Shown here piece by piece: positions 11,753 through 52,920 of a stretch of 64,000 nt of DNA (positions are counted from its first letter, which is position 1; every line of letters begins with the position of its first letter). Location of the stretch: positions 576,001 through 640,000 of the forward strand of contig CAVPCT010000005.1 of NCBI GenBank assembly GCA_963702475.1, in the 5' to 3' direction. The notes under the pieces are model-generated. The model was not told the origin of the DNA and searched no databases. It saw only the letters and a program-made list of their open reading frames with translations. The translations under genes were made by a program, and so were the position numbers. This DNA is from an uncultured Thermoleophilia bacterium. Lineage in GTDB: Bacteria; Actinomycetota; Thermoleophilia; UBA2241.

Positions 11753-11800
11753 GCCGGCCGAGGCGCCGGGCGAGCCGGCGGTGGACGGCCGGGGGCGCCC

Positions 11801-16636: not shown

Positions 16637-17485
16637 ATGCCGCCCGAGGCGCTGCGGGCCAACCTGCGCCTGTGGAACGCGTGGACGGCCATCCACGAGA
16701 CGTCCGAGTTCTACGACGTGGAGGGGTTCAAGGCCGGCGGCACCTCTCTGCTGCCCCTCGAGCTCGGGGAGCTCGGGCCGCTGGTGACCGAGGGCACGAC
16801 GCTGCTCCACCTGCAGTGCCACTTCGGGCTGGACACGCTGAGCTGGGCCAGGCGGGGCGCCACGGTGGTCGGCCTCGACCTGTCCGACGAGGCTGTCTCC
16901 CTGGCGCGGCGCCTGACCACCGAGACGGGCCTGGACGGGCGCGCCGAGTTCGTGTGCGCCGACGTCTACGACGCCGACGCGCATCTCGGGCGGCGCGCCT
17001 TCGACGTGGTGTTCGTGAGCTGGGGCGCCATCGAGTGGCTGCCGGACCTCGAGCGGTGGGCGGGCGTCGTCGCCCGGCACCTGCGACCCGGCGGCACGTT
17101 CTACATGGCCGAGATCCACCCGTTCGCCTACGCCCTCGACGAGGTCCCGGGCGAGCACGACGTGCAGGTGAAGTACCGGCTGCTGCCGGCGCCGGACCGG
17201 CCTGACGTGGAGCCGGTGCAGGGCAGCTACGCCGACATGGACGCCGACACCGAGGGGCTCGTCTCCTTCGGCTGGTCGCACAGCCTGGCGGAGATCCTCG
17301 GCGCCCTCACCGGCGCCGGCCTGCGCCTGGAGCACCTGCACGAGTTCCCCAGGTCGCCGGCACCGTTCTGGGACTGGATGGTGCGCGATGAGGACCGCTG
17401 GTGGTGGCTTCCGGCCGCGGATGGCGGCCTGCGGCGCGACCTGCCCTTCAGCTACTCGCTGCGCGCGACGCGCCCGCGGTCCTGA
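16637..17485 (+). CDS. Class I SAM-dependent methyltransferase (paralog 1)
   Basis: LLHLQCHFGLDTLSW, FDVVFVSWG, LRPGGTFY. Start uncertain (possibly GTG 16565). Confidence 0.9.
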   Translation: MPPEALRANLRLWNAWTAIHETSEFYDVEGFKAGGTSLLPLELGELGPLVTEGTTLLHLQCHFGLDTLSWARRGATVVGLDLSDEAVSLARRLTTETGLDGRAEFVCADVYDADAHLGRRAFDVVFVSWGAIEWLPDLERWAGVVARHLRPGGTFYMAEIHPFAYALDEVPGEHDVQVKYRLLPAPDRPDVEPVQGSYADMDADTEGLVSFGWSHSLAEILGALTGAGLRLEHLHEFPRSPAPFWDWMVRDEDRWWWLPAADGGLRRDLPFSYSLRATRPRS

Positions 17486-17496
17486 GGAGGCCGGCC

Positions 17497-18327
17497 GTGC
17501 TCGACGAGTTCCTCAAAGCCAACCTCGCCAGCTGGGACGAGTCCGTGGTGCTGCACGTGGCCTCCGAGCTCTACGACGTGGAGAGCTTCAGGGCCGGCAG
17601 GAGCTCCCTCAGCGCCCTCGAGCTCGGGGAGCTCGGCTCCTCGGTGAGCGAGGGCACCAGGCTCCTGCACCTGCAGTGCCACTTCGGGCTGGACACGCTG
17701 AGCTGGGCGCGGCGCGGCGCCGTCGTCACGGGGGTGGACTTCTCCGGCGAGGGCATCGCCGCGGCGCGCGCCCTGGCCGACGACGTCGGCCTCTCGGCGC
17801 GCGCCACCTTCGTACACAGCGACATCGAGTCGCTTCCCGAGGCGCTCGAGGGGCGCTTCGACGTCGTGTACACGTCCTGGGGCGCCCTCATCTGGCTCGG
17901 CGACCTGGAGCGCTGGGCCGAGGTGGTGGCCCACTTCCTCGCGCCGGGAGGCGTCTTCTACGTCGCGGAGTTCCACCCGTACGCCTACCTGCTCGCGGAC
18001 GACTCCACCCAAGACTCGCTTCGCGTCGGGTACCCCTACTTCCAGTACGGGGAGCCACAGCGGTTCGACGAGGAGGGCGACTACGCGGATCCGACCGCCA
18101 GGCCACGCCACACCGTCACCTACGAGTGGAACCACGGGTTCGCCGAGATCCTCGACCCGCTGCTGCGCCGCGGCCTGCGGCTGAGGTTCCTGCACGAGTT
18201 CCCGTACACGATCCCGGGCCTGCCCTTCCCGTTCCTCGAACGCTGCGAAGACGGACTGCTGCGCGTCAAGGGCCACCACGACGACGTGCCCCTCAGCTTC
18301 TCGCTGCTGATGACCAAGGAGCCCTGA
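17497..18327 (+). CDS. Class I SAM-dependent methyltransferase (paralog 2)
   Basis: LLHLQCHFGLDTLSW, FDVVYTSWG, LAPGGVFY; GAGGAGG RBS. Confidence 0.9.
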   Translation: MLDEFLKANLASWDESVVLHVASELYDVESFRAGRSSLSALELGELGSSVSEGTRLLHLQCHFGLDTLSWARRGAVVTGVDFSGEGIAAARALADDVGLSARATFVHSDIESLPEALEGRFDVVYTSWGALIWLGDLERWAEVVAHFLAPGGVFYVAEFHPYAYLLADDSTQDSLRVGYPYFQYGEPQRFDEEGDYADPTARPRHTVTYEWNHGFAEILDPLLRRGLRLRFLHEFPYTIPGLPFPFLERCEDGLLRVKGHHDDVPLSFSLLMTKEP

Positions 18328-18329
18328 CC

Positions 18330-18623
18330 ATGGCAGACGATCAGCTCGACGACCGGAGCCTCGACGAGCAGGCCGAGGGACCGGACGCCGACGGCGTCAT
18401 CGGCGACGCCGGACTGCTGCAGATCCTGGAGGCGGCGATGGAGGACGAGCGCGCCGCCCAGGAGAACTACCGGCGCGGGCGCGACGGCTGCGCCGACCCG
18501 CAGGCGCGCAGCCTCTTCGACCAGCTGCTGCGCGAGGAGGAGGCGCACGAGCGCGCCCTCTCCCGCCGCTACGCCGAGGTCAAGAAGCGCATCGGGCTCA
18601 GCGGGGCCGGGCGCGGCGACTGA
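18330..18623 (+). CDS. Short ferritin-like/rubrerythrin-type protein
   Basis: LEAAMEDERAAQENY...LFDQLLREEEAHE (ExxH). Confidence 0.75.
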   Translation: MADDQLDDRSLDEQAEGPDADGVIGDAGLLQILEAAMEDERAAQENYRRGRDGCADPQARSLFDQLLREEEAHERALSRRYAEVKKRIGLSGAGRGD

Positions 18624-18865
18624 CGTGCCGGGCGCCGGTCGCGGCGCGCCGGCTGCTGCGACTGACGGCCGGGGCCCGGGTCCCGGCGCCCGGCCGTCGT
18701 CGCGGCGAACTCCGATCGACCGGGGAACGTCTCGGCCTCCTGACGGCGCAGCTCGCGCCGGCCGTCCCTCCGCAGCCGGACTGACTCCGGCCCGCCGACG
18801 GCGTAGGATGACCGGCGGGCGTACGGAGGCACGTGCGCGCGAGGCCACATCACGGGGAGGACCAC

Positions 18866-21304
18866 ATGAGGAAGCTCTACGCCACGTACGTGCGCGCGCT
18901 CACCCTGGGCGCGGTGTTCGCCCTCACCGTAGCAGTCCTCGCGCTCGGCGCCGCCGCCGTTCCGGCGGCCCCCGCCGAGCCGACCATGAGCGTCACCGAG
19001 CTGCAGGACATCCTCGATGCGTCGCCCACCGGCACCGTGGAGGGCTACTTCAAGACGGTGCTCAAGGGCGCCGCGGTCACCAGCATCCCCGTCACCGTGC
19101 AGGCCGTCGTGCCCAACTACATCCCCCAGGGCGCGCTCATCATGTTCGCGGCCGGCGGCCCGGACATCGAGCAGATCGGCGGCATCGCGCAGGGCATGAG
19201 CGGCAGTCCCCTGTTCGTCCCCGCACACGGCGTCGACAAGCTCGTCGGCGCCGTGTCGTACGGGGACTCGTTCACCACCGGCTATCTCGGCCTCGCGACC
19301 CCGGTGGAGTACATGGCCTCCATGGAAGACACCTTTCTGCCGGCCGGCGCCATGACCTCGCTGCCTCGCGCGGTCGCCGTCGCCGGCCGCACCGTCGATC
19401 AGCTGATCATCGCGCCGTCCGTGAGCGCAGCGCGCGCAGCACGGCCCGCGGCCGGCACGTCCGTGATGACGCCGCTCGCCACCATGTCGGTGGTCGGGCT
19501 GCCATCCCGCAGCGCGATCTACAAGGACCTCGTGCGGCGCCTCGAGGCGCACGGCGTCACCGTGGCGCCGGCCGGCGCCGGCCTCATCGGTCAGGCGGTC
19601 CGCAGCGAGACGTCCCTCGATGGCGGCGCGGCGCTGGCCGTGCTCTTCGCACGGGGCGACATCCTGTACGGCGCCGCCGGCACCGTCACCTGGAACGACG
19701 GGGGCCGCGTGGTCGCGTTCGGCCACCCCCTGCTTGGGATCGGCAGCGTGGAGGCGTACCTGCTCGACGCGGCCGTGCACGGGGTCTGGTCCAGCGCCAT
19801 GATCCCCTACAAGGTCGTCTCGCCCGGCAACCTGCGCGGCAGCGTGTTGCAGGACCGCGGCACGGGCGTGGCCGGCAAGACGGGGAGCACACCCGCCGAG
19901 GTCCCCGTCACCGCCGCCGTCACCCTCCTGCCGCAGAACGTGGTCGGCACGGCCAACTCCTACGTGCCGCGCTGGGTGGTCACCAGCATGCCCGGCGGCG
20001 ACGGGCCGTACCTCACCGCAGCCGCCACCGGCGCCGCCGGCTACAACGCCAGCGACAACGCCATGATGCCCGGCAGTGCCTCCACCACGACCACCGTCGT
20101 CGTCGAGGACGCGGCCGGACAGCGCTACACCGTGGCGCGCAGCAACACCTGGGACGACGGCTTCGACGTGCTCGGCCTGCTCTCGTCAGACACCGCCCTC
20201 ATGCTCAGCACCATCGTCAGCGACCCGGACGGCGTCGCCCCGGCCACCGTGATCTCGGTCGACATGAGCGGACAGGCGTCGCCGGCGCGGAGCTCCGCGC
20301 GGATCGTCGACCTGCGCTTTCCGGCGGGGGTGAAGCCGGGCCACCGCGTGCCCTTCCAGGTGGTGCTCAACCTGTACGGCCAGACCAGCCCGCTGCTGCT
20401 CAGCGGGTCGCTGGACGTACCGGCGGGGGCGTCGGCCACCGGCACCGTCAGCGTGTACCCAGCCACATCCGCCCCGGAGGGTGAAGAGGGCATCCCGCCG
20501 GTCGGATCGGACACGTCGGGCGACGGGCGCGACACCGTCGCCGAGCGTGTCGCCGCCGTCAAGGCCCTGCCCACCAACGACCAGCTCCTGGTGCAGTTCG
20601 TACCCGACAGCATGGACTCGAGCGTCGACACGCCCGCCAAGGGGCGAAGCGCCGTACAGGCGGGGTCACTCGACGCCACGCTCACAGTGTCCGGCAGGTT
20701 CGTGACCGGCGGCCTGCAGCGCCGCACCGGCAACGTCACCATCAAGGCGACCCCGCGGTCGACCGCGTACAACGGCTCCTGCACGGTCAGCGGCGCCATC
20801 GCCGAGACCGACGGCGACACCAGCGTCGACATCTACGTGCAGCCCTACGGCACCGCCGAGCCGAGCAGGGTCGCCACCGTCCCGGCGCGCGCGGACGGCT
20901 CGGGCGGCGCCGCCTTCAGCTACGTCGTCACCGGGCTCAAGAAGAACACCGTGATCACCGCGGACTGGCGCGGCGACGCCCGCGCTCTGGGAGCCTCGGC
21001 AGGCACGCGCGTGGCAGTGGGTCAGGCGGTCAAGCTGTCGGCCGCTTCCGCAGGCGGCGGCAAGGTCAAGCTCACAGCGAGGGTACTGCCGGGCAAGACA
21101 GGCCAGACGGTCCGCTTTCAGCACCGCTCCGGCGGATCCTGGGTGACCGTCGGCACGGTCAAGGCGGGCCGCGCATCGGCCGGCGGCTGCACGGCCATGC
21201 TCACCTGGGCCGCGCCGGCCGGCACGAGCACGGTGCGCGCCGTCGCGCCGGCCACGACAGCCAACAGCGCCGGCACGAGCAAGCCGGTCGCCGTGAGGCG
21301 CTGA
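18866..21304 (+). CDS. Secreted SpoIVB/peptidase S55 domain protein
   Basis: Signal peptide, GGIAQGMSGSP, VAFGHPLL; beta-rich C-terminal domains. Confidence 0.85.
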   Translation: MRKLYATYVRALTLGAVFALTVAVLALGAAAVPAAPAEPTMSVTELQDILDASPTGTVEGYFKTVLKGAAVTSIPVTVQAVVPNYIPQGALIMFAAGGPDIEQIGGIAQGMSGSPLFVPAHGVDKLVGAVSYGDSFTTGYLGLATPVEYMASMEDTFLPAGAMTSLPRAVAVAGRTVDQLIIAPSVSAARAARPAAGTSVMTPLATMSVVGLPSRSAIYKDLVRRLEAHGVTVAPAGAGLIGQAVRSETSLDGGAALAVLFARGDILYGAAGTVTWNDGGRVVAFGHPLLGIGSVEAYLLDAAVHGVWSSAMIPYKVVSPGNLRGSVLQDRGTGVAGKTGSTPAEVPVTAAVTLLPQNVVGTANSYVPRWVVTSMPGGDGPYLTAAATGAAGYNASDNAMMPGSASTTTTVVVEDAAGQRYTVARSNTWDDGFDVLGLLSSDTALMLSTIVSDPDGVAPATVISVDMSGQASPARSSARIVDLRFPAGVKPGHRVPFQVVLNLYGQTSPLLLSGSLDVPAGASATGTVSVYPATSAPEGEEGIPPVGSDTSGDGRDTVAERVAAVKALPTNDQLLVQFVPDSMDSSVDTPAKGRSAVQAGSLDATLTVSGRFVTGGLQRRTGNVTIKATPRSTAYNGSCTVSGAIAETDGDTSVDIYVQPYGTAEPSRVATVPARADGSGGAAFSYVVTGLKKNTVITADWRGDARALGASAGTRVAVGQAVKLSAASAGGGKVKLTARVLPGKTGQTVRFQHRSGGSWVTVGTVKAGRASAGGCTAMLTWAAPAGTSTVRAVAPATTANSAGTSKPVAVRR

Positions 21305-37557: not shown

Positions 37558-39263
37558 CAGTAGACACGCTCCTGTGGCTCGAAGAACCCGAGCGTGACCG
37601 GCCGGTAGGTGAGCACCGGTCCTTCGGGGCGGTAGCTGGCCATGGTGTGCCTCAGCCAGTGCTCGTCGTCGCGCGTGGGGAAGTCGGTGCGCGCGTGCGC
37701 GCCGCGCGACTCGGTGCGCGCGATGGCGCCCTGGGCCACGCACAGCGTGAGGTCGAGCATGCCCTCCAGCTCCAGGGTGCGCATCATGTCCAGGTTGAAG
37801 ATGCCGCCGGCGTTGCGCAGGCCGAGACGGGTGCAACGCTCCTTGAGCTTGAGCAGGCGCTCCAGGCCCTCGCGCATGGTGCGCTCGTCGCGGAACACGC
37901 CGTAGTGCTCCTTCATCGTCGTGGTCATGATCTCGCGGATGTCGTACGGGTCCTCGCCGTCCTTGCCGCGGGAGGCGAGGCTCGCGATGCGCGTCTCGAC
38001 GGCGGCCACCGCCTCGGCCGCGGCGAGCGACGGGTCGGGGCCGGACTCGCCGCCGAGCAGGTCCGCGGCCACGGCCGCGCCGGCGCGGCGGCCGAACACG
38101 ATGGTCTCGAGCAGCGAGTTGCCGCCGAGCCGGTTGGCGCCGTGCACGCTCACGCAGGCGCACTCGCCGGCGGCGTACAGGCCCTTCATCGGCGTGCGTC
38201 CGTCGACGTCGCAGTCGATGCCGCCCATCGAGTAGTGCTGGCTGGGCACGATGGGCACCGGCTCCTCCACCGGGTCGACGCCCTCGAAGTGGATGGCCAG
38301 GTCGCGGATGCCGGGCAGGCGCTCCTTGATGCGCTCGGCGCCGAGGTGCCGCAGGTCCAGGTACACGTAGCCCTGGCCGTCGATGCCGCGGCCCTCGTTG
38401 ATCTCGGTCTGGATGGAGCGCGCCGTGATGTCGCGCGGGGCGAGCTCCATGGCCTTGGGTGCGTAGCGCGCCATGAAGCGCTCGCCGTCGTTGTTGATGA
38501 GGTAGGCGCCCTCGCCGCGGGCCCCCTCGCTCATGAGGATGTTGGTGGTGAGCAGGCCCGTGGGGTGGATCTGCACGAACTCCATGTCCTCCATGGGCAC
38601 GCCGGCGTAGTAGCAGATCGCCCCGCCCCAGCCGGTGCTGATGATGGCGTTGGTGCTGTTGCTGTAGAGGCGGCCGGCGCCGCCGGTGGCCATGACCACG
38701 GCGTCGGCCGTGAAGGCGTGGAAGCCGCCGTTGATCATGTCGTAGACGGTGACGCCGCGGCACACGCCGTCCTGCACGATGAGGCTGGTGACGAAGACCT
38801 CCACGTACATCTTCACCTGGCGCTCGTAGGCGCGCTCCACGAGGCAGTGCAGCAGGTAGTGGCCGGTCTTGTCGGCGCCGTAGCAGGTCCTTGGAAAGCC
38901 GGCGCCGCCGAACGGCCGCTGGGCGATGCGCCCGTCGTCGAAGCGGCTGAACGGGCAGCCCCAGTGGTCCATCTCGAAGATGACCCCCGGCGCGTCCTTG
39001 GTCATCTGCATCACGGCGTCCTGGTCGGCCAGGTAGTCCGAGCCCTTGATGGTGTCGAAGCCGTGCTTCTCGGGGGTGTCGTCGTGGCCCTCGGGGTGGT
39101 TGGCCAGCGCGGCGTTGATGCCGCCCTGCGCCGCGCCGGAGTGGCTGCGCCCGGGGTGGACCTGGCTGATGATGGCGACGTCCAGGCCGTCGGCCTTGGC
39201 CTCGACGGCGGCGCGGCACCCCGCGAGCCCGCCGCCGACGACGATGAGCTGGTGGTGTGGCAT
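37557..39263 (-). CDS. sdhA: Succinate dehydrogenase/fumarate reductase flavoprotein
   Basis: GGGLAG, RSHSGAAQGG, QIHPTG, ELAPRD, HYSMGG, VHGANRLGGNSL, ESRGAH. Confidence 0.95.
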   Translation of the reverse strand: MPHHQLIVVGGGLAGCRAAVEAKADGLDVAIISQVHPGRSHSGAAQGGINAALANHPEGHDDTPEKHGFDTIKGSDYLADQDAVMQMTKDAPGVIFEMDHWGCPFSRFDDGRIAQRPFGGAGFPRTCYGADKTGHYLLHCLVERAYERQVKMYVEVFVTSLIVQDGVCRGVTVYDMINGGFHAFTADAVVMATGGAGRLYSNSTNAIISTGWGGAICYYAGVPMEDMEFVQIHPTGLLTTNILMSEGARGEGAYLINNDGERFMARYAPKAMELAPRDITARSIQTEINEGRGIDGQGYVYLDLRHLGAERIKERLPGIRDLAIHFEGVDPVEEPVPIVPSQHYSMGGIDCDVDGRTPMKGLYAAGECACVSVHGANRLGGNSLLETIVFGRRAGAAVAADLLGGESGPDPSLAAAEAVAAVETRIASLASRGKDGEDPYDIREIMTTTMKEHYGVFRDERTMREGLERLLKLKERCTRLGLRNAGGIFNLDMMRTLELEGMLDLTLCVAQGAIARTESRGAHARTDFPTRDDEHWLRHTMASYRPEGPVLTYRPVTLGFFEPQERVY

Positions 39264-39275
39264 TCCTTGCTCCCC

Positions 39276-39644
39276 TCAGCTCACCCAGACCCAGAGGGCC
39301 CAGATCCCGAAGATGACGGCGGCGATGCCGACGACCCAGAGCACGACGTCGAAGGCCTTGCGGCCGCCCGAGCTGCTGAGGCCCCAGTCGAGCACGACCA
39401 TGCGCAGGCCGTTCAGCCCGTGGTAGACGACGGCGAGCAGCAGCACGATGTCGTTGATCAGCACGCGCCGGCCGGCCAGCCGCTCGCCGATGTTGTCGAA
39501 GCTCAGCTCGCCGATGGCCACGTAGTGCGTGAGCACCAGGTGGATCAGGATGGTGACGATGACGAGCACCGCGGTGACGCGCTGGCCCAGCCAGGGCCAC
39601 ATGCCGCCGCGGGCCTTGTCCAGGGCTTCCGTTCTCATTGCCAT
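39276..39644 (-). CDS. sdhD: SDH hydrophobic membrane anchor
   Basis: QRVTAV...IH...YHGLNGLR..VLD; three TMs. Confidence 0.85.
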   Translation of the reverse strand: MAMRTEALDKARGGMWPWLGQRVTAVLVIVTILIHLVLTHYVAIGELSFDNIGERLAGRRVLINDIVLLLAVVYHGLNGLRMVVLDWGLSSSGGRKAFDVVLWVVGIAAVIFGIWALWVWVS

Positions 39645-39654
39645 GTCGGCCCCC

Positions 39655-40043
39655 TCAGCCCAGGATGAACGACGAGGCCTTGGCGGCGAACAGCGCAAGC
39701 GTGAGCGCCGCCACGAGCATGCACACCCAGAAGATGGCCTTGTGCCGGTGCACGCCGACGCCGAGGTCCATGAGGATGATGCGCACGCCGTTCAGGGCGT
39801 GGTAGAGCACCGCCGCCACGAGCATGAGGTCGAGGAAGACCAGCAGGGGCTTGTCGAAGAACTCGAACAGGTTGTCGATGGCCTCCGGGCCGCCGATGCG
39901 GCCCTGCGAGATCACCCACACGTGGACGAACAGGTAGAAGACCAGCACCAGGCCGCTGATGCGGAAGAGCATCCAGGCCCACATGCCCTGCCCTTCCACA
40001 ACCCGGCCCCGACGTTGGCCTGCTCGCGCTCCTTGACGGCCAA
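39655..40043 (-). CDS. sdhC: SDH cytochrome b556 subunit (frameshift near 39990)
   Basis: GMWAWMLFRISG...HV...YHALNGVRIILMD; GGAGG RBS before TTG. Confidence 0.85.
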
Positions 40044-40536: not shown

Positions 40537-42249
40537 CTAGAGCAGGTACGAGTACTTGCGCAGTTCCGCGGACAACGCCTCGCTGGCGGCGGCCATTTCG
40601 GACTCGCCTACGGCAGCCTCGAGAGCTGCGACCAAGCCCGCTATCCGAGATGCCTGCGCGTCATCGAGAAACGGCATCACCTTCTGCCGCGCCTGCTGGA
40701 GAAGGAGCAGCACCTGCGGATCGCGAGTCGTGCTTGAAACCTCGGTACGCTGGACTTCTTGACTCTCGATGGTCTGATCAACGCGCTGGGCTATTTCCAC
40801 CAACTGCCGCTTGTCCTGGGTAACGCCGGTCGTGACTTCTTCTTGGAGTATCACCTGGCGCGTGACGTTGTCGATGAGCGTTACGTAGACGATGCCGTCC
40901 ATCTTGTACTCGTAGGTCAGGTCAAGCGACGCCTCGCCGCGAGGACGAGGAGTAATCGGAACGTTCCAGCTGCACAGCTCGATGATGTCGGGGTCGTCCA
41001 GCCCGGCAACCGGGTCGCCTTCGAGGATGTCGACCTTCACAACCTCCTGAAGATCGACCGCCGGTACGTACGTCTCGGTGCGCTTGGCGGGCAACTTGTG
41101 ATTGCGGGGGATGATCTCGCTGAATTCGAGGGTGCCCGGCACCCGGCCAATGACGGTCGTTCCTAGAGCATGCTCGGTGGACACAAGGAAGTCCGCGGAT
41201 TCAAGTTCCCCGCTCATGATGGCCGCCGCAATCGCAGCACCTTCGGCAATCGCCGTCATGGGATCGATGTTGGGAGCAGGGTCCATGTTGAGCAACTCAC
41301 AGATGAACTGGCGAACCGCTGGAATCTTGCACGTCCCACCGACGAGCAGGAGGGTATCGACGTCCGACGCCTGACGCTTGCCGTCGGCAAGGGTGCGTTC
41401 GATGGGGCCGCGCACTCTGTCAACGAGAGCCCGCGTCTCTTCGTCGAAGATCCGTCGCGTCACGTGCCGGTACTCTCCCCCAGGCATCGCCACGTTCGTT
41501 TCTTCAGCAGCGGAGAGCTTGATCTTAGCCTTCTCACACTCGATCTTCAGCGCACCCACATCGACGGGCGACCACGACTCAACGCCCGAAGATGCCGCGC
41601 GGAGCTTGTTGAACAGGATCCGGTCGAAGTCCAGCCCGCCGCATTCGATGACGCCGCTCGACGACTGCTCATGGAAGACCTGGTCCATCGACTCGAGAAG
41701 AGTGACATCCAGGGTCCCCCCGCCCCAGTCAACCACGAGTACGGTCTTGTCGCCCGGGGTCTCGTAGCCATGCGCCATGGCGGCTGCCGTCGGTTCGTTG
41801 ATGAGCGTCAGCACCTGGATCCCACCCATGCCTGCGCAGATCTTCGTCCGGGCACGCGCGAGGCCACGACTGTTCGCGGGGACGGTGATGACCGCCTGCG
41901 CGACCTCAGATCCGCCCCACATCGTCGGCGCTGTTCGGAGGTGGCCGAAGATGAGCGCCGCCACCTCTTCCACGAGGTAGGCCTGGCCGCCCACCTCGAC
42001 GACCTCTTCACCCTTGAACAGCCGTTTGATCGCCTCGATCTTGTTGTCGTGCCGCATCTTGGCCGCGAAGCCGAAAAGGGGCTCATTGTCCCGACCCACC
42101 GCGAACACCGTAGGCATGATGTTCTGATAGCCGAAAGTCTCCCACTCTCCTGAGGGCGGCTGATCGATCTGCAGGACGCTGACGTCACCGGCGGCGAACT
42201 GGGCCACCACCGAGTTGGTCGTGCCGAAATCGATTCCAAAGGAACTCAT
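40537..42249 (-). CDS. Divergent Hsp70-family protein (not the housekeeping DnaK)
   Basis: GIDFGTTNS, AVITVPA, INEPTAAA, DWGGGTLD, GGLDFD, EKAKIKLS, LVGGT, IIPRN substrate-binding domain; 570 aa. Confidence 0.93.
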   Translation of the reverse strand: MSSFGIDFGTTNSVVAQFAAGDVSVLQIDQPPSGEWETFGYQNIMPTVFAVGRDNEPLFGFAAKMRHDNKIEAIKRLFKGEEVVEVGGQAYLVEEVAALIFGHLRTAPTMWGGSEVAQAVITVPANSRGLARARTKICAGMGGIQVLTLINEPTAAAMAHGYETPGDKTVLVVDWGGGTLDVTLLESMDQVFHEQSSSGVIECGGLDFDRILFNKLRAASSGVESWSPVDVGALKIECEKAKIKLSAAEETNVAMPGGEYRHVTRRIFDEETRALVDRVRGPIERTLADGKRQASDVDTLLLVGGTCKIPAVRQFICELLNMDPAPNIDPMTAIAEGAAIAAAIMSGELESADFLVSTEHALGTTVIGRVPGTLEFSEIIPRNHKLPAKRTETYVPAVDLQEVVKVDILEGDPVAGLDDPDIIELCSWNVPITPRPRGEASLDLTYEYKMDGIVYVTLIDNVTRQVILQEEVTTGVTQDKRQLVEIAQRVDQTIESQEVQRTEVSSTTRDPQVLLLLQQARQKVMPFLDDAQASRIAGLVAALEAAVGESEMAAASEALSAELRKYSYLL

Positions 42250-42828
42250 GTCACCTCCTCCTCGACCGGAGCCTCGGCGTCGCTGGACTCGTCGACTCCC
42301 TCTTGCCCGGGTGTCGCAGACGGCGCTGCTCGCTGAGGCGACTGCCGAGCCTCGTCCGGGTGTGCGTCGCGCGTCTCGGCCACGGCTTCAGACTGCCTTA
42401 CTGCGTTCGAGTCCACGGCTCTCGCCTGCCCCTGCTTGATGACTCGGCTGCTGATGGCGTCGATATACGCCGGGACCAAGATCTCCAGGCGGTCTCCGGT
42501 GCCGTCGACGACTTCGAAGGCCTCGGGCTGCGAAGCATCCTGGAACCTCACCATGCCGGCCTGCTCAATCCACTCCGCCACAAGCCGGCGCAGAGTCTCG
42601 ACGTCCTCAGTCCGCGAGAGCGCCACATCGAGTTGCGCTAGTTGCACAAGGTGCATGGTGAGATCCTGGACGGCCGCGACGACCGTCTTCCGCAGGCCTT
42701 CGAGGCCTCTACGGAACGCGACGTGCCCGGATCCCGACGACCAGTGCGACCTCAACCCTATCGAGCTTCCGGTCGACCGTGTCGAGCAGCCGGATGATCT
42801 CGTCAAGGCGCTCTCTCTCTTTCCTCAT
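42246..42828 (-). CDS. GrpE-like protein (frameshift near 42720)
   Basis: Helical N-terminus MRKERERLDEIIRLLD...; C-terminal PEAFEVV...EILVPAY...RVIKQGQARAV resembles the GrpE beta-head; ATGA overlaps with both neighbours. Confidence 0.55.
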
Positions 42829-43244
42829 TGCGGATCAGCCTTTCCTAGAGGGAACAGCACGGACACATCGATGCGTTCTGCGCTCAAGTGAACGAGAGCA
42901 TCGACCGCTTCGTCGAGCGCTCTCGCGCGGATCTCCTCCAGTTCCTCACTTGTCGGCCTTGCCGTACTCCTTGCCAACGGGACGGCCGGAATCTCAAGCC
43001 CCCCCATCTCGGCAAACAGCGCCCGGTCAGCGGGCACGCGGTAGTGATCGACGGCCGACCCCGGATCGTCAATCGCCTGTTCGATCGCGTGAAGAGCCCA
43101 CGTGACATCTTCGATGCCGTAGAGAGCGTCGGGGTCGCGCTTCACGCGCCTGAGCACTGCCCCGGCTGCCTTCCGCGCGGCGTCGCGCGAGGCCCCGTAG
43201 TCGATGCCAAGAATGAAATAGGGGTTGCGGCGCTCGTCATCCAT
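42825..43244 (-). CDS. J-domain-like protein lacking HPD
   Basis: NPYFILGIDYGASRDAARKA...KRDPD matches the J-domain helix I-II pattern with DPD in place of HPD. Confidence 0.65.
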   Translation of the reverse strand: MDDERRNPYFILGIDYGASRDAARKAAGAVLRRVKRDPDALYGIEDVTWALHAIEQAIDDPGSAVDHYRVPADRALFAEMGGLEIPAVPLARSTARPTSEELEEIRARALDEAVDALVHLSAERIDVSVLFPLGKADPQ

Positions 43245-43250
43245 CGGCTG

Positions 43251-46093
43251 TCACCTCGAAAGGGCCATGAGCAGGTAGTACAGACGCTCGCTTTCCGATC
43301 GCAGGTCACGCAACGCATCGGCAAGCTCTTCGTCGCCAAGGTGCGGTGTGATTTTGTCGAGAATCTTGCAGGTGTCGGTGCAGAACCGCATGACCGGGTT
43401 CGTCGCCACGAGCACGGCGGCGCGATTCACGCTATACCCGTGGCCGACACTGGCGATCTGCTGCCCGATGCGGTTGTAGAAGCCGAACGCCTCGCGAAGC
43501 TCTGAGTCGCGATACCTGCCTACCACCGCCGCCATCTCGGCGAATCCGATGCTCAGCATGGCCTGCGCGTACTCGCGTTCGTCCGCCGGAAGGGAGGCCA
43601 GTTCGCTCTTGGCGTAGATCAGCATGTCGAGGAACTTGTCTTTGGGTTCCCCTCCGTCCTCAGTGACGCTCTCCGCAACGCCCGCCACCACGAGTCCGAC
43701 CAACGGAATCCTCTCCCCCGCGTCCATCGGCATGTCGGCCTCAATGACGTCGATGCCGAGCATGCGGCCCACGTCTCGGCCGGGGTCTTTGTGAGCCCCG
43801 TCATGAGGGCGCCCACCAATCCATCCCGCTCTTCGATCAACCACCTCGCGTCGGAGTTCCCCCGCAAGGCGGCTGCAAGGGCAACAATGAACGTATCGAT
43901 CCCCTTGGCCCTCGCCCCGTAGACCCTGGCCTCCACCGAACCAGGTGCGGAGACGATGAGGCTGTCGTTCCGACGAAGCCATTCAGCGTCGACGGAGGCC
44001 ATCAATCGCAGGGGGCTGCGGAACGGATCGCAGTCCCACCGGACCGGCCACGCCCACCAGTGCGTGCACCAAATCCTCGGGCATGTCCGCCTCGGGGTCC
44101 GTCGTCGAACTCGCTGGCGCTGAACCCACAGTCACGGCCCGAAGCGACGGCGACCACGCAAAGCTCAGGGGAGGGAGACTCAGCACCAGTCGGGCGAGAT
44201 GGTGAGCCCCGGCAGCGGGGTCCTCACCTCCAGAGACGACACCAATGTTGGCTTGTAGAGCCGACGAGTGCTCGTTGTCGATGGCTTGCTCAAGGGCTTG
44301 AATCGCAGCCTCGTCGCGTCCAACTTGCCACTGTACCGCCGCCATCAAGTTCAGCGCTTCATCCTGGTGGCTTCGGCGCGGGACATCGAAAGACACTGCT
44401 TGGCAAGGGCCAGTGTCTTCTCCCACTCCCACGCGTAGAGGTGGTCTTGCCTCGTAAGCTTGGGGAACTCCAGGAACTCGGGCCCTGCTTCTATCAGAGC
44501 CGGCCTTCGCGTGACAGCGGTCGCACAGCGCGAAGGACGGGAAACGCGTACAGACAAGAGCGCCGGTGTCGCCGGCTCCAAGCTGTCGGCTTGGACGCAG
44601 GCGGCGAGCGCGTTGAGCTTGTCGTGCTGTTCTGGGTTCATGCCGGGGACCGTTACTGGTCGGACTCGGGTCTCAGAGGCCGATGTTGTGCGCGAAAGCC
44701 GGCCGCGTACCAGGACGACTGCAGTTCAAGGTCGGCCGTGACTTCGGGGACGCCCTGCGGCCACGCATGGCGTGTCGCGTGGCGCTTGAAACCATGGTGT
44801 TGAGCACTCTTAGCCGTGCTCGAAAGCCTAGCTTGAAACGTGCGCGTAGCGCCACATGAATGGTGCCGACGACGCCGGGAGAGCCTGGTCAATCAGGTCA
44901 TCAAGCACAGACATCGGCAGAGTAGCAAGGAAGTCGGGAGCCGCCTTGGTGAGGTCCGAGCAACGACCGCCGAATGTCGCGAGAAGCTCGAACGCGGGTC
45001 TGGGACCTCAAGATCATCCGGGAAACGGAGGGGACCCTGTGATGCCGATCTCGCCATCTCCGACGCTGCCAACCTGGCACTGGTAGCCTGCGGAGTGAGG
45101 CTAGACCGCGGTCAATGAAACGAGCAGCGCCACGAGCGGCCAGGTGCGTGACGAGTCGCGCGGCCAAGTCAGTGGCCCAAGGAGAACGTGCTGGACTAGG
45201 GCCACGGCCGGGTTGGCTTCGCAGCACCCTCCAGCGCCTCTGCCACTCGCTGCGCAGCGCTCGTTTCGACAGAGTGGTCCAGCAACGCAGCACCACCACA
45301 AGCTTGACCGGATACCCGGAGGGGAGCATCGTCATGACGATGAGCGCTGCCTCCCGTGGCACTGGAGCGTGCAGCAATGACGCGTACCAATGCGCGCGGA
45401 GTCACTCAGCGGGATCTGCGCGAGGAGATCCTCACGGGAGCACCGAAGCACGTCCGCGACCGTGAGACGGAACTGGCCGTGGCCTGGTTGATCTCAGAGC
45501 GCTACGGAGGCGCTCGCGGTCAGTCTGCACCTTCGATCACACGCCGTGAACGAGCGACCATGCCCGCGTGCCGCTGCGGCCTCGTGCGAGGGCCTCGACG
45601 ATCGTGAGGACGTTCCACCTCGACGCCTCGACTACGTGGAGCGTGAGCGTCGTCGTTGTGGCAACAACGATGGCGGCTTCTTGGTGAACCCTCTTCGGAC
45701 TTGATAGACACTCCCTAGCTGCCCTCGAGGCTGGGACCTGGGGAGAGAGAGCGTGGCCCTGCACTCGGTGCACACTGCGCCGACGGACGGCCAAGCACCG
45801 CAAGACCAGCAGAAGGGAGGCAACGGCAGGTCAATGGCGGAAGTCGCATCCGGCACACCGACCGCGCTGGGCAACTTGGCCGTTGAGGGCGCAGAAGACT
45901 CTCTCGTCGGGACTTGCGCAACCACCCACTCGCGCAAACCCTCATAGGCCCACTTCAGGTGCCCCTGTGCGTCATAGTCGATGACGTGCGTCGGCGATAT
46001 AGGTCCGTGACCCTCAAGGAAGTACTGCCGGTTCTCGTAGCGAATGGTCTTGCCGACCCACGCGGTACTGGGTCCGAACGTCGCGAGAAGCAT
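43251..46093 (-). CDS. Large Zn-ribbon/TPR-like protein, broken by many frameshifts (may be more than one gene)
   Basis: Joinable fragments: MLLATFGPSTAWVGK..., CWSC..CTEC, WEWEKTLALAKQCL / EALNLMAAVQWQVGRDEAAIQALEQAI (TPR-like), helical C-terminus ending YLLMALSR*. Confidence 0.5.
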
Positions 46094-46345
46094 CGCCCCT
46101 CCGGGTCGACACCGTGGAGGGATTATCGACATCGAGAGGGCCGCCCTTGATGCGCGGCGAGACAATGCACGCGTGAGCCGGGGAGTCGTCCGAAAGGTCG
46201 GCGCAGGGACACGTCCGCCGGCTCGAGCTGGCAGCTGGGCTTCGACTACCCACCACACTCTCCTCAAGTCAGTCGCCCCAGGGAACGTCATGGGTTCCTC
46301 TACTCGATTCAGTAACAACGGAAGATGAATCCTCAGGTCGGAGCA

Positions 46346-47909
46346 GCGCTCGCCGTGCACGTCGAACTTCTGGCCGTCGTCCTGGAGCAGGCCGGAGAGC
46401 TGCTCCCACTTCTTGTCGCAGCCGGAGAAGCCCACCTTGTCGGCGAGCTCTCGTGATGGGTCCGCGTGACATCTCGTACGCAGTTCCTGGATGGTCTGCG
46501 CCGCCGAGGCCTGGTCGACGACCTGCTCCTCGAGCTCCTCGAGCTCCTCGTCGGGCAGCTCGTCGAGGTCTTCGAGGTCCTCGATGTCGAGCTCGGGGGC
46601 GACGGCGCCGGTGGCGAGCAGCACGTCGGCCTGCTCGGCCGTCACCTGGGCGCCGCGGCGCAGCAGCTTCTCCTCCTCGAGCTTGGCCTCGAGGCGCTTG
46701 CGGCGGCGCTTCAGCGACTGGTAGATCGCCTCGGGCGAGGAGGCGAGGCGGCGCTGCAGGGTGGTGAGCGCGAAGCCGACGGCGATGCGCCGGCGCCCCT
46801 GGCCCTGCTCGTTGGCGAGCCGGTCGGCGCGGTTCATCTCCTCGCGCACGTAGGTCGGTGAACTCGTTGTAGAGGTACGCCTCGTCGGCGGAAAGCGCGT
46901 ACTTGACGGCGTAGGCGCGGCGCTCGGGGAACAGCGGCCGCCCGTCAATGTGGCGCAGCTGCTCCTTGGAGAGGCGGCGCATCATGTCGCGGGCGCCGGC
47001 CTCCTTGCTGTGCCCCTCTTGCCGCGCACCTTGCCGGCGAAGCGGTCGTAGTCGAGCAGCGCCATGAAGAGGTCGAAGTCCTCGGGCTTGCCGCTGTGCG
47101 GCGTCGCTGTCATCAGCAGCAAGTGGCGCGTCACCTCGCCGAGGCGCATGCCGAGCTTGTAGCGCTTGGTCTCCTTGACCTCGTTGCCGAAGTAGTGCGC
47201 CGACATCTTGTGGGCCTCGTCGCAGATCACGAGGTCCCAGTCGCTCTGGCTGAGCTTGGCGAGCAGCTCCTCGTTACGCGAGAGGTGGTCGAGGCGGGCG
47301 ATGAGCAGGTCCTTCTCGAGGAAGGGGTTGCCGGCGTACGAGGCGTCGATCATCTGCCGCGTGACGATCTCGAAGGGGAGGTGGAACTTCTCGCGCAGCT
47401 CGTCCTGCCACTGGTCGACCAGCATGCCCGGGCAGACGATGAGGCACGCGCTTGGCGTCGCCGCGCACCATGAGCTCCTTGATGAGCAGGCCGGCCATGA
47501 TGGTCTTGCCGGCGCCGGGGTCGTCGGCGAGCAGGAAGTGCAGTGGCTGGCGGGAGAGCATCTCCTCGTAGACCGCCGAGATCTGGTGCGGCAGCGGCAT
47601 CACGTTGGAGGTGCTGACCGCGAGCAGCGGGTCAAAGAGGTAGGCGAGCTGGATGCGGCGCGCCTCGCTGACGAGGCGGAAGAGCGCGCCGTCGGCGGTG
47701 AGGGACCAGGCCTTGCCGGGCAGCCTCGACCTCAAACCGCGACTCGGCGTCCCGGTAGAGGACCTCCTCGCCGACGCGGCCCGCGTCATCGCGGTAGGTG
47801 AGCGTAAGCGCGGCGGTGCCGTGCCACTGCCGGCGACGACGGTCACCGCCTGGCCCGCGACCACCCCGGTCACGCGCGCGCCAGGCGTGAGGTCCTCGAG
47901 ACGTGCCAT
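46346..47909 (-). pseudogene. Truncated SNF2-family helicase
   Basis: [38 protein letters not shown]. Stops just before the C-terminal helicase domain, where composition changes; several frameshifts. Confidence 0.85.
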
Positions 47910-48123
47910 GCGGAGAGGCCCCTCTCGTCAGCTCGTCAGAATGCCGGGCTCGGCTCCCCTCAGGCCCGGCGAGCTCAGACCGAACACACCTGCCGGGACT
48001 CTAGCAGTTGAGGGTGACGGATGGCAGGGCCGACTCAAGTCTCAACCCGGAGCCGTGCGGCCGTTTACATTGCGTCGGCAGCTCTGGACGACAGCGCCGG
48101 CCGGGGCAGCCACAATGCGTCCA

Positions 48124-49610
48124 ATGCCCATGGACGTGCTGCTCGACACGAACATCCTGATCCCGGCGGAGCCAACCTCGCCGAGTGACATCGGAGCCGA
48201 CGACACCCTGTGGTGGCGGAGCTCTTGCGCCTCATAGGAGACCGGGGGCAAGGTGCTGATCCACCCGGATGCCTTTCGGGAGAGTCGAGCACGATACCGA
48301 CCCTGGGCGGCGCGAGCTACGACGCGCATTTCTCGCGAAGTATCCACGGCTCACGTCACCTCCTGAGCTTGACGGCACAGCTCGCCGACCGCTTCGGCTC
48401 TCCAAATCCCGGATCGCACGACGCCGTCGACCTACGCCTCCTGGAGGCGCTGAGGGCGCGGTCTCGCCGACATATTGGTCACGGATGACACAGCATTGCG
48501 CCGGCGAGCCAGAGCCATCGACCTCGGGGACTCCGTGCTCACTTCATCAGAGGCGCTGGAACTCATGCGTCGTCTGTACGAACCGCTGGTCATGGCGCCG
48601 CCTGCGATTAGGCATCTCACGTGCGATCAACTCGATGTCGGCCGATCCCATCCTCGACTCACTCAGCCGCGACTACGACGGGTTCGACGACTGGCTCGCC
48701 AGAGCCGCGCTCATGCGCCGTGATGCGTGGGTGGTCGTCGATGAGAGGCGGCATCTACGCGGGCCTTGGCAATCATCAATGAGGAGATCCAGGGCGAGCA
48801 TGGGCTGCTCGGCAAGCTCCTCAAGATCTGTACGTTCAAAGTGGCTGACGTCCACCGCGGAAGCCGGTACGGAGAGCTCCTCCTGAAGCCGATCCTTGAT
48901 CACGCCTTCGCGCACGGCTACGACACGGTGTTTGTCGAAGCGAAGCCAGACAACGAAGAGTTGTTTTCCTTCCTCGACACCTTCGGCTTCCATGACACGC
49001 GGCCGATTCAAGAACGGCACTGACCCCGTGTTCGCAAAGACGCTCCGCGTCCCCGATGACGGGGCATCTGGTCTGAACGACCTCGAGTTTCACATCGCAT
49101 TCGGTCCGCCGACGCTCAGATGGGTCGGCGTGCCCGCGTTCATCGTCCCGATCCAACCTCGGTTTCACAGCCGCCTCTTCCCCGAGGCGGAACGCCAGCT
49201 CACGCTGTCGCCTGCTGCGGAACCTCACGCAAACGGGATCCGCAAGGCGTACCTGTCGAAAGCTGCGTCGCGCCAACTGACGCCCGGGGTCCGTGTCTGT
49301 ACTTCTACCGGTCTCAGAGCCAGGAGGTGACAGTGGTGGGTGTCGTCGAGGATGTCCATGTTCTGTCCGATGCACCGTCTATCGTCCGTGCAGCAGGAAA
49401 GAGGACGCTGTTCGCATATGAGGACATCGAGAAGCGCTCGCAGCGAAAGGTACCGACGTCCTCGTGATCGGCTTCCGCCAGGCCCGAGTCCTCGACGAAC
49501 CGATCTCATACGGCGAACTCCAGAGAGGTGGCGTTCTCAAGGGTCCGCCGCAGACCGTCACGTCCATCGAATCGGAGGCAGCGGCATGGCTGGCGCAAGA
49601 GCGCACGACT
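48124..49610 (+). CDS. PIN + GNAT acetyltransferase + ASCH/EVE-like protein (multiple frameshifts)
   Basis: VLLDTNILI, DAVDLRLL, LVTDD (PIN); LDSL..DYDGFDDW, LKICTFKV...RGSRYGELLL (GNAT); IVPIQPRFH..LFPE, IRKAYL, FYRS (PUA-like). Confidence 0.75.
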
Positions 49611-51812: not shown

Positions 51813-52326
51813 ATGCACAAGTCCATCGTCATCGTGGCGGCGCTCGCCGCCGCCCTGCTGCTGGCCGTCGCCTGCGGAAGCGGGAGCGACGGCACGCCGG
51901 CGCCGCAGGCACGGCCGGCGTCGGCGACACCGTGAGCGTCGCCGGAGGCTCCTCCAGCTCGAGATCACGCTCGAGGAGACCAGACGGCTGCCGGCGAGAC
52001 GGTCGGCGGCACGGAGGTCCGGCCGGCCCTGTTCGGGGTCAAGCTCGCCGTCAGGAACCTGACGGGGTCGTTCTACGACGACGCGATCTCACTCTGCGCC
52101 GTGCTCACCGACACGAGCGGCCGCACCCACAACGTCGCGTGGGAGCTCGTCGACGAGAGCGACGAGGAGTTCCGCGACGTGCTCGAGGGCGTCCGCATCC
52201 CGGCGGGCGGCGAGCGGACCGGCTGGGTCTACTTCGCGCTCGCGCCCGAGGCGCGAACCGTCAACGCTGCGCTTCACCGCCGAGGCCGGCTTCGGTCCCG
52301 AGACCGGGGTGTGGTCGCTGGAGTGA
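51813..52326 (+). CDS. Lipoprotein, DUF4352-like (frameshifted)
   Basis: Lipobox LAVAC; FGVKLAVRN, IPAGGERTGWVYF. Confidence 0.6.
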
Positions 52327-52340
52327 GACGGGCGCGCCGA

Positions 52341-52676
52341 TCACGGCGCGACGAGCCGTGCCGAACCGCGCGAGCACGGCCGCCGTCAGCTCCGCGGGCA
52401 GCGCGCACGCCAACTCCGCACCGCGCGCCCGCCAGTCCAGGCTCTTCACCTGGTCGGAGAGGACGACGCCGTCGACCGGCAGCGCCTCCGGGACTGCGAC
52501 CTCGAATGGGTATCCCTTCACCCTGCTCGTCAGTGGACAGAGCAGCGCGAGCCCGACCTGCCGTTGTACGCCGCCGGCGAGACGACGAGCCAGGGCCGGC
52601 GGCCTGACTGCTCGTGTCCCGCCACCTCCGGCGTGGCCAGCCAGACGACGTCGCCGCGTTCGGGCACGTACCCCAC
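52341..52676 (-). CDS. mazF: MazF/PemK endoribonuclease toxin (frameshifted)
   Basis: YVPERGDVVW, GHEQSGRRP.LVVSP..YN, KGYPFEV, LSDQVKSLDWRAR. Confidence 0.85.
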
Positions 52677-52677
52677 C

Positions 52678-52920
52678 TCACCAGACCTCGCTGCCGGCCG
52701 CCTGGCCGGCGTCGGTCTCTGCGTGCAGGTTGCCAGGCGTCACGCCTGCCAGCAGGTCCGCCAGCGTCGGTGCCGGGGCGAGGCAGGCTCGAGCCACGAG
52801 CTTGCCGTCGCAGACCCGCAGGTCGACCGCCGAATCCACCACCAGTCCCATCTCCTCCGCAAAGACCTTCGGGATCCTGACCGCGAGGCTGTTGCCCCAG
52901 CGCTGGACCTTGGTTCTCAT
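52678..52920 (-). CDS. mazE: MazE (AbrB-type) antitoxin
   Basis: KVQRWGNSLAVRIP...TLADLL..VT..NLH.E...G.EVW. Confidence 0.92.
   Translation of the reverse strand: MRTKVQRWGNSLAVRIPKVFAEEMGLVVDSAVDLRVCDGKLVARACLAPAPTLADLLAGVTPGNLHAETDAGQAAGSEVW

Follow-up and report, generated by a model that had tools for sequence, protein, structure and literature searches.

How does an Hsp70 gene come to stand beside three partner genes of its own in a bacterium that keeps a canonical dnaK-hsp20-grpE-dnaJ-hspR-clpB locus elsewhere in its genome, and what might such a set of genes do? The question is raised by a 64-kb window, meaning here the whole stretch of 64,000 nucleotides that was analysed, from an uncultured Thermoleophilia bacterium (contig CAVPCT010000005.1), in which four co-oriented minus-strand genes at 40537-46093 encode a large scaffold protein, a J-like protein, a GrpE-like protein and an Hsp70. 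The window lies on a 1.08-Mb contig belonging to a 4.3-Mb, 9-contig metagenome-assembled genome (MAG) of about 70% GC, with a completeness of 93.8% and a contamination of 6.5%. An original prediction, made from the letters alone, had described these genes as a self-contained chaperone system in a defence island. As set out below, the cassette is quite probably one copy of a recurrent, horizontally acquired accessory Hsp70 machine with private co-chaperones. Its genes, together with two motifs of the scaffold, are as follows.

40537-42249, minus strand: divergent Hsp70 of 570 amino acids, intact, with an ATG start (open reading frame, or ORF; Pfam HSP70)

42246-42828, minus strand: GrpE-like gene with two single-base frameshifts (sequence reading, orthologues, model of the orthologue from locus L008)

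42825-43244, minus strand: J-like protein of 139 amino acids, intact (ORF, alignment, AlphaFold model)

43251-46093, minus strand: large scaffold gene, broken (collinear with the intact 975-residue orthologue P0135)

44247-44366, minus strand: TPR-like repeat of the scaffold (…EALNLMAAVQWQVGRDEAAIQALEQAI…; Pfam TPR models, sub-threshold at 0.002-0.1)

45746-45811, minus strand: Zn-ribbon motif CWSCG...CTEC of the scaffold (Pfam DZR_2, sub-threshold at 0.0018-0.0036)

The junctions between these genes have been read directly in the sequence. The scaffold TGA at 43251-43253 stands 6 nt ahead of the J-like ATG at 43244, an ATGA at 42825-42828 comprises the J-like stop and the ATG of the GrpE-like gene, and a second ATGA at 42246-42249 comprises the GrpE-like stop and the Hsp70 start. 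The common orientation, the overlaps and the 6-nt gap of the original prediction are all borne out in this way. The chain of overlaps from J-like over GrpE-like to Hsp70 does exist, but the ATG at 42828 is out of frame with the ORF ending at 42246. It opens a frame with a stop after 39 codons, and comparison with orthologues indicates that the reading passes via a second frame (…VVRDPGTSRSVEA…) into the frame ending at 42246, with single-base shifts, located by eye against the same orthologues, near 42736 and 42702.

The Hsp70 has the usual architecture of a nucleotide-binding domain (NBD), a linker, a substrate-binding domain and a lid, and its tail reads YSYLL (codons 40540-40554). It matches the Pfam family HSP70 (PF00012) at 4e-74, with 250 bits against a cut-off of 20.6, and 23-27 aligned members show no variation in the catalytic motifs GIDFGTTNS, IKR, NEPTAAAM and DWGGGTLD. 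Scores against the specialised NCBIfam models stay far below their cut-offs, with 256 against 822 bits for the DnaK model TIGR02350, 255 against 648 for the DnaK model NF001413 and 220 against 620 for HscA. Identity to the host DnaK is 31%, and alignment of the two shows that about 20 residues are absent from the N-terminal part of the NBD, that the linker reads DFLVS and that the lid is short. In a tree of 53 rows, obtained by a quick maximum-likelihood search in which HscC and HscA form long branches, 24 cassette Hsp70s make up one clade (99% support in the Shimodaira-Hasegawa-like approximate likelihood ratio test, SH-aLRT), with the Hsp70s of loci L014 and L015 as its sister, and Escherichia coli DnaK, HscA and HscC lie together with the host DnaK on the opposite side, among 27 rows. 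Judged by family scores and tree, the cassette Hsp70 appears to fall outside the DnaK, HscA and HscC lineages, in agreement with the earlier claim that it does not belong to the DnaK clade.

Two features of this clade appear to be new. The first concerns the residue three positions before NEPTAA, which in 118 clade Hsp70s is A in 85, T in 26, V in 3, G in 2 and L in 2, and R in none (0/118), whereas E. coli DnaK, HscA and HscC all carry R at this place. We take this arginine to be R167 of DnaK, which contacts the Asp of the HPD motif. The second is the extreme C-terminus, which reads Y-x-Y-L-[FL] in 115/119 clade members (Y at both -5 and -3 in 115/119, L at -2 in 118/119) and is absent from DnaK, HscA and HscC.

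The J-like protein has been modelled with AlphaFold at a predicted local distance difference test score (pLDDT) of 77.5, with helices I-IV of a J domain at residues 8-12, 20-36, 44-59 and 61-64. Beyond this J-domain-like part (8-64) come a linker and, at 99-122, a C-terminal helix. A Foldseek comparison of the model with the PDB returned J domains for most of its top matches, the best having a probability of 0.97 (2lo1, template modelling (TM) score 0.62 by target). When the family profile was aligned by hhalign with a set of 50 real J domains, drawn from the host genome and from the loci, a P of 2.5e-5 was obtained, as compared with 0.41 for the reversed query, at least 0.083 for 20 column shuffles and 0.34 against GrpE. 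An Atlas feature search with the L008 orthologue placed 27 of 30 matches in the DnaJ set, with a score of 0.95 to a DnaJ-bearing cluster. The 17 aligned members share the pattern RNPYxILG…A…A…DxTWAL…YRVPA, and none of them has HPD (0/17): the site is occupied by RDPD in the window protein, by [DE]PD throughout its subclade (8/17) and by nothing alike in the others. Taken together, the model and the alignments point to a four-helix J-domain fold that lacks HPD. Loss on both sides, of HPD in the one protein and of the arginine in the other, fits a private interface between J-like protein and Hsp70.

The GrpE-like family extends to 404 representative clusters at E<=1e-3, searched with a profile of 7 sequences. 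An AlphaFold model of the L008 orthologue, built from 76 sequences (pLDDT 91.7), has helices at 2-36, 41-76 and 81-94 followed by a six-strand beta domain, a topology of long helix, helical bundle and C-terminal beta domain as in GrpE. Foldseek against the PDB ranked GrpE or GrpEL1 from Thermus, E. coli and human mitochondria in all of places 1-9 (probability 0.60-0.99), with unrelated proteins from rank 10 onward at a probability of at most 0.3. Alignment by hhalign with 44 real GrpE sequences gave P=2.6e-4 (probability 42%, 114 collinear columns), with controls at 0.15, 0.049 (shuffle minimum) and 0.039, and set the AYDGLRKQ of the family on the AdFeNYkKR of GrpE. The Atlas structure search gave a TM-score of 0.57 to a GrpE cluster. 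By its modelled fold the protein appears to be a distant GrpE homologue, for which a role in nucleotide exchange is predicted. In addition, the GrpE-like proteins at L006:1793-2416 and L007:3457-4092 carry a C-terminal hydrophobic, apparently membrane-spanning segment, which in P0286 stands before a coiled coil; these segments suggest that membrane-tethered versions exist.

The scaffold consists of an N-terminal domain of about 60 residues, the Zn ribbon, an extended helical part in which TPR-like repeats occur and, at the C-terminus, a conserved module. Its gene is collinear with that of P0135 from the ATG at 46093 to 43254, and P0135 is in turn homologous to proteins of 692-905 residues in loci L008, L009, L011 and L038, at 25-42% identity. 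Matches of the family profile include a consensus TPR protein (3.5e-5, over 4 stretches) and the Zn-ribbon protein YfgJ (E=0.029). The large TPR-Zn-ribbon gene that had been proposed here stands as regards its extent and its Zn-ribbon motif, the TPR-like repeats being suggested by the family profile, but not as an open gene, being interrupted by about 20 frame changes and an in-frame stop.

The association of these genes is conserved. Eighty metagenome loci were kept from a scan for the Hsp70, all contexts being metagenome contigs, of which many are short and where absences at contig ends mean little. In 12 of the 80 (L003-L013 and L038) the Hsp70 is 39-51% identical to that of the window. Profiles of the J-like, GrpE-like and scaffold proteins match ORFs in 9, 7 and 9 of the 80 loci, and these matches are confined to the 12 clade loci, with none at the 68 other Hsp70 loci. 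The full order of scaffold, J-like, GrpE-like and Hsp70 is found in L008, L009 and L038. Other loci show variations on it, the J-like protein being fused to a scaffold module in L006, L007 and L012 and located after the Hsp70 in L003 and L005, while the scaffold directly precedes the GrpE-like gene in L004 and is fused to the GrpE-like protein in P0181, a database protein of 1142 residues.

The clade is also rare. At E<=1e-100 its Hsp70 has no match in the genomes searched, which comprised 400 from the class, 400 from the phylum and further sets of 48 and 10, and no match was found in 72,556 plasmids at 1e-60. The IMG/VR viral contigs kept held other Hsp70s only, at best 33% identical, and genome contigs, searched with the Hsp70 alone, yielded a single unrelated locus (25% identity). 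Homologues of the Hsp70 are named in Demequina, Isoptericola, Lentzea and MAGs, by Hsp70 match alone.

Several observations weigh against regarding the cassette as a dedicated machine of this kind. The partners are barely visible to curated models: the J-like protein has no Pfam (E<=0.1; PF00226), NCBIfam or PADLOC match, and a search with its profile met J domains only at E 0.66-1.1; Pfam and NCBIfam (PF01025) are silent on the GrpE-like fragment of the window and on its L008 and L009 orthologues, and the GrpE-like family profile found no GrpE among PDB sequences. The structural matches come with weak Foldseek E-values, of 0.04-1 for the J-like protein and 0.004-0.2 for the GrpE-like protein, none reaching 0.001 in either case, and TM-scores of the latter to GrpE are 0.31-0.36. 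Single-sequence matches of the scaffold to TPR and Zn-ribbon models lie below the Pfam cut-offs. No GrpE-like gene was found in L003, L011 and L012, where the flanks of the Hsp70 are visible, so that the four-gene synteny raised at the outset holds for the restriction of the partners to clade Hsp70s and for the full order in three loci, but with fused, rearranged and incomplete forms beside it. AYLL is also the ending of the sister Hsp70s of L014 and L015, next to which no scaffold was found. The meaning given to the loss of the arginine and to a docking of the tail on TPR repeats is drawn by analogy with DnaK R167 and HPD and with EEVD and TPR, and the broken state of the window copy may be an artefact of assembly. 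Against these points stand the J and GrpE folds recovered by model, Foldseek and hhalign, with HPD missing from every J-like member, which support the original prediction of an HPD-less J-like partner, a GrpE-like partner and a self-contained Hsp70 with private co-chaperones. The cassette is a real, conserved, recurrent and essentially unstudied accessory Hsp70 cassette.

A mechanism can be proposed for such a machine. The J-like protein would link scaffold and Hsp70 by way of a rewired interface, and the loss of the arginine throughout the clade would insulate the machine from the DnaJ and DnaK of the host. A dimer of the GrpE-like protein would reset the Hsp70 ATPase. In eukaryotes, the EEVD tail of Hsp70 and Hsp90 docks on TPR co-chaperones; the Y-x-Y-L-[FL] tail may dock on the TPR module of the scaffold in a like manner. 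The two situations share an invariant peptide at the extreme C-terminus of an Hsp70 and a partner bearing TPR repeats, and differ in the motif itself and in the bacterial nature of the present system, where binding is predicted by analogy. The Hsp70 would in this way act on one dedicated partner, remodelling it or keeping it in check, as opposed to serving general folding, and the TPR protein might be its client or a sensor.

The horizontal origin of the window copy is reflected in the composition of its surroundings. GC amounts to 0.63-0.65 over 40-46 kb, as compared with 0.67-0.77 over 1-40 kb and 0.68-0.76 from 52 kb onward, and an island with GC down to 0.63-0.69 can be followed from 40.4 to about 52 kb. 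GC at third codon positions (GC3) is 0.72-0.79 in the cassette genes against about 0.9 or more in most host genes, and about 0.75 in the ORFs of the island against about 0.95 in flanking host genes, so that the lower GC noted in the original prediction is evident in both profiles. On the left the island borders on the sdh locus of the host:

37560-39275: SdhA, host sdh locus, left border of the island

39279-39791: Sdh cytochrome subunit, host sdh locus, left border

Because GC3 is low in relation to the flanks, no match occurs in the searched genomes and the Hsp70 of the cassette is single-copy in the host genome, this copy appears to be foreign and acquired horizontally; since the GC3 of the island has not been ameliorated, the acquisition was probably recent.

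The other genes of the island answer in part to what had been expected of them. Directly upstream of the scaffold gene, at about 46345-47927 (minus strand), lies the anticipated SNF2 helicase fragment (Pfam SNF2-rel_dom 1e-10), closest to PADLOC HmaA (2e-47) and divided into several out-of-frame pieces. Two toxin-antitoxin pairs had been announced, of which one was recovered, a MazE/MazF locus at 52264-52920 (minus strand), and a scan of 30 neighbouring ORFs gave no second pair. Here MazE (Pfam 5.9e-9) is followed by a MazF split over two frames, its N part at 52533-52739 corresponding to profile positions 1-35 and its C part at 52264-52677 to positions 35-105. The suggested PIN gene is represented by an N-terminal motif, VLLDTNILI, seen by eye near 48150 (plus strand) and without a Pfam match, whereas the suggested ASCH gene was not found among the same 30 ORFs. 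A GNAT acetyltransferase fragment (Pfam 3e-5) occupies 48745-49020 (plus strand), and the other ORFs around the cassette in the window are without matches. The term defence island fits in part at most, as the region holds broken genes (SNF2, MazF and the GNAT fragment).

This leads to the state of the copy itself. As assembled, the Hsp70 and J-like genes are open, and the scaffold and GrpE-like genes are broken. A frameshift-aware alignment of the scaffold with P0135 covers 933 codons at 60% identity, with 12 bases missing and 8 in excess, or 20 frame changes in all, and it crosses one in-frame stop codon, at 45539. Given these two broken genes, the cassette copy in this genome is probably inactive. 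The alternative that fares best holds that the organism itself carries an intact cassette and that the 22 frameshifts arose as errors of the consensus, in a part of the MAG that varies between strains and is poorly covered. The assembly, with its 9 contigs and 6.5% contamination, leaves room for such errors; the mazF and SNF2 genes of the same island are frameshifted as well, and the un-ameliorated GC3 speaks for a probably recent arrival. A J-like protein from another assembly (P0128, on a 13.6-kb contig), 98% identical to that of the window, is shifted at a different place, after residue 84 or so, and the window copy lacks that shift. On the other side, the shifts are unevenly spread, with about 20 in the 2.84 kb of the scaffold against none in the 1.71 kb of the Hsp70, where about 7 would be expected at a uniform rate (P about 0.001), and an in-frame stop is also present. 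The remaining contig is well formed: a median 6-kb window of the 1.08-Mb contig is covered to 90% by long coding-like ORFs, whereas the 6-kb windows at 44-50 kb have a cover of 0.09-0.33, the lowest on the whole contig and within its bottom 1%. An origin of the frameshifts in homopolymer errors is not supported: runs of 4 or more are found at none of the 20 scaffold shifts, and the run length there averages 2.15, as compared with 2.39 in the background. Consensus error is a serious contender, somewhat short of an even chance, and we lean slightly toward real decay.

A second alternative takes up the anti-phage role suggested from the start. The cassette would be a conflict system in which the fast-evolving Zn-ribbon/TPR scaffold is a sensor held and released by the Hsp70, release leading to growth arrest or to the action of an effector. 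The window offers some encouragement in its low-GC3 island with an adjoining HmaA-like SNF2 fragment and MazEF pair, as does the patchy occurrence of the clade, which is missing from all of the 858 other genomes searched. Divergence of the scaffold is faster than that of the Hsp70, at 60-66% against 92% identity to the same relative, for which P0135 and the Hsp70 P0001 are taken as genes of one contig, each being recorded on a contig of 13,177 bases (source ENA). Further hints come from two related loci, where signalling genes accompany the cassette:

L008:1356-4298, minus strand: kinase/PP2C/vWA companion genes

L008:4394-6321, plus strand: kinase/PP2C/vWA companion genes

L009:6113-10213, plus strand: kinase/PP2C/vWA companion genes

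Upstream in L008 are found kinase, PP2C and vWA genes and a small vWA-like protein with a DMSGS motif, and a 441-residue protein of this locus is homologous to a 431-residue Zn-ribbon protein of L009, where PP2C and kinase genes come after the cassette. Directly after the L008 Hsp70, at 11767-12327 (plus strand), a 187-residue protein matches the CdiA-CT RNase A-like Pfam family at 4.4e-6, just above the cut-off. A homologue stands directly after the Hsp70 of L010 (1592-2203, plus strand) and has no Pfam match; likewise, Pfam is silent on the conserved ORFs that lie downstream in these two loci. A second and different Hsp70 paralogue is encoded 5 kb downstream of the L008 cassette (17125-18915, plus strand); it joins E. 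coli HscC in one tree and is unresolved beside HscC in another, both being long branches.

These hints are outweighed by what the wider comparison returned. None of the 5027 models of PADLOC-DB 2.0 matched the Hsp70, the GrpE-like protein, the J-like protein or the scaffold pieces, which agrees with the earlier view that the cassette is not catalogued there, and the neighbours in L008 and L009 gave generic kinase matches only. No known defence partner and no effector common to the family were found, the conserved core being without one. The L011 neighbours, comprising AraC, a hydrolase, MFS, MOSC, a CobQ-like protein and an AAA_16/GerE (LuxR-type) regulator, look unrelated to conflict, and the lack of a clade member in the plasmids at 1e-60 and in the viral contigs kept also argues against such a role, the case for which is drawn from about ten neighbourhoods. 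A conflict role is possible but unsupported, and we consider this alternative unlikely. More doubtful again is the specific proposal that the tail-to-TPR wiring and the private J interface would hold back a fast-evolving sensor scaffold for as long as no invader disturbs it, so that the cassette would act as a chaperone-gated immune switch.

A third alternative places the cassette within a published theme. In their account of conflict systems centred on GAP1-N2 and GTPase proteins, Kaur, Burroughs, Iyer and Aravind (Kaur et al., 2020; eLife, PMC7159879, section 29) mention HSP70 with GrpE and a partner fused to DnaJ or TPR repeats, found chiefly in actinobacteria and firmicutes, as well as a kinase, PP2C, vWA and Zn-ribbon-beta-rich theme. 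The accessory actinobacterial HSP70, the GrpE and the DnaJ/TPR partner are shared with the present cassette, and the kinase, PP2C, vWA and Zn-ribbon theme resembles the neighbours in L008 and L009. Nonetheless, the GTPase, GAP1, FNIII and tubulin families have no match in 40 proteins of related loci and 37 ORFs of the window, where GAP1-N2, GTPase and FNIII were sought with Pfam, whose cover of every domain is unconfirmed; moreover, the J-like protein here is separate and lacks HPD. Membership in the GAP1-N2 theme is regarded as improbable. That paragraph is the nearest published description, so the cassette is not wholly undescribed, contrary to what had been supposed; a full-text literature search found no paper on it, and the supplements of Kaur et al. 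(2020) may list it. Least credible of all is an ordinary DnaK paralogue or displaced heat-shock operon, which could appeal to DnaK models being the best family matches of the Hsp70 but is contradicted by a DnaK score of 256 bits where 822 are required, by the canonical locus elsewhere in the host, by the separate clade in the tree and by partners and a gene order unlike those of a heat-shock operon.

Among systems that have been studied, E. coli HscC with DjlB and DjlC (ybeQRSTUV-hscC) comes closest. Here as well, a specialised Hsp70 with a short lid (556 residues, against 570 in the cassette) stands beside private J proteins, and the TPR-like Sel1-repeat genes ybeQ and ybeT parallel the TPR partner. 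In the E. coli K-12 stretch 676000-690000 (L083), ybeQ and ybeT (Sel1) and two DUF1266 genes are annotated beside djlB and djlC. The cassette differs in that its Hsp70 appears to stand outside the HscC lineage and lacks the arginine that HscC keeps, in that its J partner lacks HPD, in that it has a GrpE-like gene of its own where none is annotated in the hscC stretch, and in that its scaffold carries a Zn ribbon. With the canonical DnaK-DnaJ-GrpE system the cassette has three folds in common, and as the catalytic residues are kept the ATPase cycle is presumably shared. It departs from that system in the low identity of its Hsp70, the missing NBD stretch, the DFLVS linker and the short lid, in the lack of HPD, in the order scaffold-J-GrpE-Hsp70 and in being accessory and patchy. 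A further comparison is offered by CnuD of the CoCoNuT systems, which has Hsp70-like NBD and substrate-binding domains in a predicted defence context; as characterised in the sections of Bell et al. (2024; PMC11090510) that deal with it, CnuD is tied to McrB/McrC homologues and has degenerate ATPase motifs, whereas the cassette has no McrBC, keeps its motifs intact and includes J-like and GrpE-like proteins.

In the relevant part of a 2026 review (PMC13580251), bacterial Hsp70 paralogues beyond DnaK and HscA are described as largely unexplored 'dark matter'. The cassette provides a compact test case in this field, combining a J partner without HPD, an Hsp70 without the arginine, a GrpE that can hardly be recognised as such and, next to a TPR-bearing partner, a conserved peptide at the C-terminus of the Hsp70. 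The window copy is poorly suited to experiments, because it is broken as assembled, and the intact relatives are better candidates. If the proposed wiring is true, the family would illustrate how an Hsp70 can be insulated from the housekeeping chaperone network and dedicated to one partner, and the docking of its tail would constitute a bacterial analogue of EEVD-TPR docking.

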